From Escherichia coli (lineage in GTDB: Bacteria > Pseudomonadota > Gammaproteobacteria > Enterobacterales > Enterobacteriaceae), in the NCBI RefSeq assembly GCF_003334315.1, contig NZ_QOWR01000003.1: DNA of 64,000 nt; one strand, given 5' to 3'. A program made the translations under genes and the position numbers. The first letter of the stretch is position 1. Each line of letters begins with the position of its first letter. Below the pieces are notes generated by a model, which saw only the letters and a list, made by a program, of their open reading frames with translations, was not told the origin of the DNA and ran no database searches. Shown here piece after piece: positions 55,364-55,978 of the stretch.

Positions 55364-55978
55364 GATTGTCTGCTCCCCTGTCTTGTTATGGGAGCAGTAT
55401 TCAGGAATAAAAACATTCATTAAAAGAATTAGTCGTTATCGCACAGATGATTTTATTCTTAGCAAAAAAACGGCAAAGGAAAGATTAAATATGCAATTAC
55501 TCCGTTCTAACAATTGGGAAAATTACTACACTTCATTTTAGTGATGCATAAACAACCACATTACGAGATTTATTACTTCATTATTTCTATCAATATCAAT
55601 ATATATAATAAAACTATTATATTCGCATTGTATATATCACTGTATCATTCTCAATCACTCGCATATTACATTCACATAATGTATATAAACAATGCTTGTT
55701 CACAGAACATATTTTTTAAATGCAATTAATTGACAAACTAAATCACATCTAAATACAATGTATAAAACAAAATAACTATACATACCAAACATACAAACAC
55801 TTAACATATGAATTGCATAGAAACATTACCCAGTCGAACCCCCGGGTCTGAAAGCCCTTGCTTTTCAGTTATTAGCAACATTTAACATTTATAAATTAAC
55901 ATCTGGCTGCGCCAGAGATTACGTCTCTGAGTGCATCGTTGTGCTTGTAGTATAATAAATAAAATGGAGTGTCATTAA

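Follow-up and report, generated by a model that had tools for sequence, protein, structure and literature searches.

The 615 bp that separate the divergent genes tauA and yaiS of Escherichia coli raise the question of which parts of this spacer serve either gene, and what the remainder is. We examined it in a 64-kb stretch of E. coli DNA (the window, whose numbering is used throughout unless another record is named), where tauA occupies 54401-55363 on the minus strand and yaiS, with a GTG start, 55979-56650 on the plus strand. The gene coordinates and the match to K-12 (NC_000913.3 384617-385231; 99.5% identity, three substitutions) uphold the original prediction of a 615-bp divergent region at 55364-55978, and the spacer is present in 4,825 of 5,426 complete E. 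coli genomes. Our analysis indicates that the spacer is very probably a composite of three parts, all of them already described for E. coli K-12: a promoter for tauABCD, an AT-rich centre, and the start region of yaiS. Indeed, the spacer is already known, with both its Cbl/CysB promoter and its H-NS-bound promoter island published.

The spacer and the neighbouring yaiS-yaiO cassette

The AT-richness that had been predicted for the spacer was borne out, its GC content being 30.4% against 51.1% for the window and dropping to 23-28% at the centre. No other 300-bp segment of the window has a GC content as low as that of 55501-55800 (25%), which also holds the window maximum of -10-like hexamers (13 in 300 bp, the median being 1). 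Other low-GC stretches rich in -10-like hexamers (27-32% GC) occur at ~40350-40750, 46800-47150, 50400-50800 and 59050-59400, and these could be similar AT-rich intergenic regions.

The repeated TACAT and ATACA motifs of the original prediction are no commoner than composition predicts. TACAT occurs twice against 2.3 expected from dinucleotide-preserving shuffles, and ATACA three times against 2.6; AACAT alone is raised (eight occurrences against 2.8; p ~0.009, uncorrected, with seven motifs tested). The CATAC units of the string that had been quoted as an example, which lies at 55780-55810, read CAAAC or CACAC in the B2-like alleles described below and are thus not conserved. A repeat search of the spacer returned just short two-copy matches of the kind that is typical of AT-rich DNA.

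Six alleles of the spacer were compared, namely those of the window and of K-12, one allele of 97.7% identity, and three B2-like alleles of ~86% identity. Divergence between the window and the B2-like alleles was calculated by segment with the Jukes-Cantor correction, and revealed a mosaic of slowly and rapidly changing blocks (Table 1).

Table 1. Features of the tauA-yaiS spacer and its surroundings, in window coordinates; d is the Jukes-Cantor divergence between the window and the B2-like alleles
Feature	Position	Strand	d	Details and basis
tauA promoter block	55364-55499		0.015-0.022	
tauA 5' UTR	55364-55389	-		26 nt, with GGGGAG Shine-Dalgarno; Cappable-seq start and sequence
tauA -10 hexamer	55396-55401	-		AATACT (plus strand AGTATT), -12 to -7; position relative to mapped start
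Inferred Cbl activator site	55457-55501	-		-68 to -112 from tauA start; reported footprint and conservation edge
Fast-diverging segment	55500-55699		0.25-0.27	11 gapped columns including a 9-bp indel; holds TTGAGA-16-TACAAT at 55654-55627 (-)
Published promoter island	55517-55825	.		U00096.2 383994-384302; PMC3661553 Table 1 and supplement, coordinates converted
Less-diverged 100-bp block	55700-55799		0.085-0.107	Holds TTGACA-18-TACAAT
TTGACA-18-TACAAT, near-consensus sigma-70 promoter-like, toward yaiS	55730-55759	+		11/12 consensus match
Unconstrained segment	55800-55934		0.20-0.235	-1 and +1 indels; GC-rich patch 55828-55860, weak hairpins, palindrome
Constrained yaiS-proximal block	55935-55978	+	0-0.047	0-2 differences in 44 bp; TATAAT 55951-55956, ATG 55964, GGAG Shine-Dalgarno 55966-55969, TAA before GTG 55979
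yaiS-yaiP-yaiX-yaiO cassette bordering the spacer	55979-59180	+		Citrobacter sp. FP75 homology

On its yaiS side, the spacer borders a cassette of four genes, yaiS, yaiP, yaiX and yaiO, and sequence comparison indicates that this cassette is foreign and was horizontally acquired. The same four genes are found in Citrobacter sp. FP75 with 78% nucleotide identity over 55980-59180, from the start codon of yaiS to the end of yaiO. Among the relatives of YaiS, taking one genome per species, the Citrobacter protein is the closest (81% amino acid identity), and the next best, from Stenotrophomonas, reaches 48%. The homology does not continue upstream of yaiS, where the Citrobacter region shows none to the E. 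coli spacer and is itself AT-rich (~31% GC). In the O157:H7 strain LSU61 (locus L004, 4001-7862), the cassette is replaced by an island encoding a response regulator, a MASE1 sensor kinase and a UhpC-like transporter, and ~115 bp upstream of tauA are still recognisably homologous, 38 bp of them identical. The DNA from an IS1 element up to yaiO (yaiS through yaiX) is deleted in BL21, and in Klebsiella the gene listed just before the tauA orthologue is an orthologue of b0261 and not of yaiS (orthologue table of Kim 2012). The Citrobacter homology edge, the O157:H7 replacement, the BL21 deletion and the Klebsiella neighbour together mark the spacer as the place where a core operon meets a variable slot for acquired DNA.

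The genes of the cassette differ in their state of preservation. The full 223-aa yaiS ORF is present in the window strain, in five other E. coli strains and in Citrobacter, and a premature stop at codon 186 is found only in K-12 (locus L001, 4616-5173). We considered a decay of yaiS on the basis of PGAP 'pseudo' or 'incomplete' flags in several strains and rejected it; these flags appear to be annotation artefacts, since the translated 223-aa ORFs are intact. At 57139-57145 the window yaiP is missing 10 bp (CGCACATCCG) found in K-12, in strain 550 and in Citrobacter, and is thereby frameshifted into ORFs 56660-57142 (160 aa) and 57145-57846 (233 aa), which makes it a pseudogene in this strain. 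The yaiX gene (57695-58405, 236 aa) is intact in the window strain and split by IS2 in K-12. An ORF matching YkiC (56516-56635, minus strand, 39 aa, with one S-to-P change relative to K-12) overlaps the 3' end of yaiS in antisense.

The tauA side of the spacer

The original prediction was right in treating the spacer as a divergent control region with tauABCD under CysB/Cbl control. Cappable-seq of K-12 places the tauA start at U00096.2 384430 (+), 26 nt upstream of the ATG at 384456, which corresponds to window position 55389 on the minus strand. The conversion was anchored on two data points, namely yaiS at 383283-383840 in the table of Kim 2012, which yields 384456 for the tauA ATG, and the Cappable-seq start at 384430. 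On the tauA strand (K-12 plus), 384430 is the sole Cappable-seq start between 383338 and 388394. The hexamer that stands at the -10 position of this start belongs to the 38 bp over which even O157:H7 shows no difference. The core promoter is weak, with no recognisable -35 element, and a consensus scan does not call it; a weak -10 without a good -35 fits an activator-dependent promoter.

The pattern of constraint agrees with such a promoter over a short distance. Synonymous divergence (dS) amounts to 0.195 in tauA, 0.154 in tauB, 0.10 in tauC and 0.05 in yaiS, yaiP and yaiX; with a d of ~0.02 against the tauA value, the tauA-proximal 136 bp have diverged approximately ten times less than neutral sites. 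Constraint ceases at ~55500, about -110 from the start. Cbl reportedly protects -112 to -68 at tauA, and CysB is said to bind several sites there. We take the Cbl footprint to correspond to 55457-55501, at the upstream end of the constrained block 55364-55499, and the edge of constraint coincides with the end of this reported footprint. The exact position of the Cbl site is thus one that we infer from the reported footprint together with the conservation boundary. The reported CysB sites would presumably lie in DNA whose sequence varies between phylogroups.

The tauA side resembles the Cbl/CysB sulfate-starvation promoters (tauABCD, ssuEADCB), with a start at -26, a weak -10 and no -35, and its constraint to about -110 matches the single reported Cbl site. 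This likeness covers only the tauA-proximal ~136 bp of the 615 bp. These ~136 bp are very probably the sulfate-starvation promoter of tauABCD, held under strong purifying selection, in which transcription from the weak AATACT requires the LysR-type activator Cbl, which would bind at about -68 to -112, with CysB acting as a helper.

Natural variants touch this side of the spacer as well. In BL21 (locus L003, BL21-AI, 4001-4170), an IS1 element lies 110 bp upstream of the tauA ATG, at window ~55474 and ~-85 from the start; since this is inside the putative Cbl site, B strains would be expected to induce tauABCD less well upon sulfate starvation. In O157:H7, the region upstream of tauA has diverged beyond the -10 hexamer, and tauA regulation may therefore differ in that lineage. 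The Kim 2012 data also contain an antisense start supported by two reads at U00096.2 384474 (-), window ~55345 on the plus strand, inside the 5' end of tauA. A transcript from this start would read across the whole spacer to yaiS, but the two reads probably reflect noise, or else weak divergent transcription by the tauA promoter.

RNA polymerase and H-NS at the AT-rich centre

What drives yaiS had originally been regarded as unknown, which proved mistaken, as the spacer is a published H-NS-bound island with RpoD and RpoS SELEX peaks and named candidate promoters. The entry "383994_309 yaiS(-)/tauA(+)" is one of 78 promoter islands of K-12 in Panyukov and Ozoline 2013, who place it in H-NS class 'A' (bound in all ChIP studies compared) and report an association with foreign genes called by three predictors (PMC3661553). 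Such islands are described as binding RNA polymerase and forming open complexes while yielding short oligonucleotides rather than full transcripts (PMC3661553). Shimada 2014 found an H-NS-flagged RpoD-holoenzyme SELEX peak in the spacer and named two promoters, TTGACA-18-TACAAT toward yaiS and TTGAGA-16-TACAAT toward tauA (PMC3946193), both of which were recovered by our independent consensus scan, at 55730-55759 (+) and 55654-55627 (-). Furthermore, the RpoS-holoenzyme SELEX peak of Shimada 2017 at 383868 maps, within array resolution, to window position 55951 (PMC5493296).

The window agrees with this description. Promoter islands span at least 300 bp with an exceptional density of predicted starts; the locus is listed by the authors and its hexamer density is the window maximum, although that density is not above shuffles. 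Association with horizontally acquired genes is provided by the yaiS-yaiO cassette. Compared with the K-12 promoter islands (Shavkunov 2009; Panyukov and Ozoline 2013), this is the same locus and nothing substantive differs: AT-rich DNA, promoter-like hexamers, published binding of RNA polymerase and H-NS, and foreign neighbours are all shared, and productive transcription is probably low. The window comes from a strain other than K-12 and carries the three substitutions, and its hexamer density is what composition predicts. Indeed, the spacer holds three full promoter-like sites against 3.8 expected from dinucleotide shuffles, which argues that the island is a consequence of composition and not an independently selected feature.

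We favour a reading in which the AT-rich composition of the central ~400 bp would itself create the -10- and -35-like hexamers to which RNA polymerase binds, with H-NS coating the island such that little or no productive transcription results. H-NS is presumably the cause of the silence at this spacer. The likeness to H-NS-silenced acquired DNA extends to low GC, a position at the edge of a patchy cassette, H-NS occupancy in the literature, and transcription that is probably silent or low; unlike such DNA, the AT-rich tract is not among the sequences that E. coli and Citrobacter have in common at this cassette. The high-affinity H-NS motif TCGATAAATT is not notably present in the spacer, where two 2-mismatch matches were the only, and uninformative, hits.

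The same centre might instead have no role at all, being a neutrally drifting, AT-rich remnant of an insertion junction at which the binding of H-NS and RNA polymerase is incidental. Over most of the interior, divergence equals or exceeds the neutral, synonymous rate and is accompanied by indels, which suggests a largely unconstrained sequence; promoter-like sites are no commoner than composition predicts; insertions of IS1 and deletions are tolerated in the central DNA; and the Citrobacter cassette is preceded by a different AT-rich region without homology. Set against this, both of the diverged allele classes have kept a low GC content, as has, independently, the region preceding the Citrobacter cassette, and the block 55700-55799 is less diverged than its flanks. 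This retention suggests that it is the composition that is maintained and the sequence that is not, and an island that keeps its composition in this manner is consistent with H-NS silencing that needs composition rather than specific sites. On balance, we consider a centre without a role unlikely, though a reading to be taken seriously, and retain the H-NS-coated island as the better account.

The spacers ssuE/elfA and cysB/ymiA, which lie outside the window in K-12, are also listed as promoter islands (PMC3661553 Table 1). Three loci of the sulfur-starvation regulon thus share this feature.

Promoters directed at yaiS and the search for small genes

Two candidate promoters point toward yaiS. 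The proximal one is the TATAAT whose predicted position, 55951-55956, was confirmed; on a reading of the sequence it has a poor -35 and no extended -10. The 44 bp that contain it are the most likely seat of yaiS expression in our reading, and would serve as a conserved core promoter and translation start for the acquired yaiS-yaiP-yaiX-yaiO cassette. The positions 55964-55981 read ATG GAG TGT CAT TAA GTG, a 4-codon ORF in the yaiS frame that ends immediately before the GTG start. Its TAA is lost through a T-to-A change at 55976 in the B2-like alleles of SCU-306 and FEA3, where yaiS consequently starts at ATG 55964; as this ATG lies just 8 nt past the TATAAT, the mRNA could be leaderless or nearly so. 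A perfect palindrome, CAGAGA-N5-TCTCTG (55914-55930), has its centre ~41 bp ahead of the start expected from the TATAAT; most of it is conserved among the alleles, and it could be a transcription-factor site.

The distal candidate, TTGACA-18-TACAAT, has a predicted start at ~55766, which would give yaiS a leader of 213 nt. It marks the exception within the drifting centre, the 100-bp block around it being less diverged. It is conceivable, if improbable, that this element is the real promoter of the yaiS operon, that its leader is regulatory, and that the TATAAT at 55951 is secondary or unused. Both hexamers are invariant in 6/6 alleles and match the consensus at 11 of 12 positions, the surrounding 100 bp are two-fold less diverged than their flanks, Shimada 2014 assigns the element to yaiS (PMC3946193), and in a predicted fold ACACUU (55797-55802) would pair with the yaiS Shine-Dalgarno region. 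The other observations favour the proximal promoter: Kim 2012, a single dataset of low depth, reports no start inside the spacer toward yaiS; the leader is poorly conserved and lacks structural support; the block 55935-55978 is the more strongly conserved of the two and is where the RpoS SELEX peak coordinate falls; and some natural strains carry an IS1 between the -35 and -10 of the distal element. Either the distal near-consensus promoter or the proximal TATAAT may fire once silencing is lifted.

It is similarly doubtful that 55730-55759 is a functional, H-NS-gated promoter, from which displacement of H-NS would release either the long yaiS leader or a separate short, unannotated transcript. 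If true, the sites of the promoter island would not all be decoys, one of them being a genuine conditional promoter.

In strain PSS-13 (locus L009, 1184-1951), the IS1 element with its 9-bp target duplication corresponds to window 55738-55746, between TTGACA and TACAAT. Strain O15_8X also carries an IS1 in the spacer, and the AT-rich spacer seems to be a target of this element.

The length of the spacer had further been taken to leave room for an unannotated small RNA or small ORF, an expectation that found no support in Rfam, folding, covariation, ORF conservation, or the available start-site and Ribo-RET data. The spacer is indeed long and has ORFs of 15-71 aa on both strands; a 25-aa ORF at 55808-55885 is open, with start and stop conserved, in 6/6 alleles, and the conserved near-consensus promoter lies upstream of it. 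Nevertheless, it is highly improbable that the spacer encodes a small RNA or small protein. A scan of Rfam 15 with E up to 10 gave no match in the spacer, the sole match being ssnA inside tauA with 13.8 bits against a gathering threshold of 37.3. The predicted fold of the putative leader (55766-55990) is no more stable than those of shuffled sequences (z = -0.42), and compensatory changes were found at 0 of 36 predicted pairs (covariation term -0.3), a comparison of low power that draws on six sequences in two allele classes. No plus-strand terminator was found downstream of the distal promoter. Two weak terminator-like matches on the minus strand were rejected, as they belong to no plausible transcript and are not conserved. 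We also rejected the GC-rich patch 55828-55860 as a tRNA fragment, since its sequence does not permit a paired T-arm and changes fast between alleles.

The coding evidence is no more favourable. When all ORFs of at least 15 aa were translated in the six alleles, every one was interrupted or showed mostly non-synonymous change, and most gained stops or frameshifts. The 25-aa ORF keeps about half of its residues, includes a -1/+1 frameshifted stretch and has no Shine-Dalgarno; a 35-aa ORF on the minus strand (55700-55807) has changed almost only non-synonymously and acquires a premature stop. The spacer interior, moreover, mostly evolves as fast as neutral sites or faster, and the K-12 RefSeq annotation has no feature in 384617-385231, even though recent small proteins such as ykiC are annotated next door. 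The Ribo-RET table of Stringer et al. (bioRxiv 10.1101/2021.07.02.450978), which uses a different genome numbering, was searched by peptide. It contains the tauA start on the tauA strand and, on that strand, no initiation site in the spacer or for ~4 kb upstream of tauA; none of the candidate spacer peptides is among the Ribo-RET entries listed, with the tauA strand covered. The start-site data agree, with the tauA start alone on the tauA strand in Cappable-seq and none inside the spacer toward yaiS at the low depth of Kim 2012.

The comparison of alleles slightly refines the published picture of this spacer, in that selection keeps only the tauA promoter to about -110, the core promoter and ribosome-binding site of yaiS, and one near-consensus promoter. 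The locus may be seen as a textbook-style case in which an activator-dependent promoter of a core operon adjoins an AT-rich, H-NS-coated boundary with a foreign cassette, and is of little wider import beyond this.
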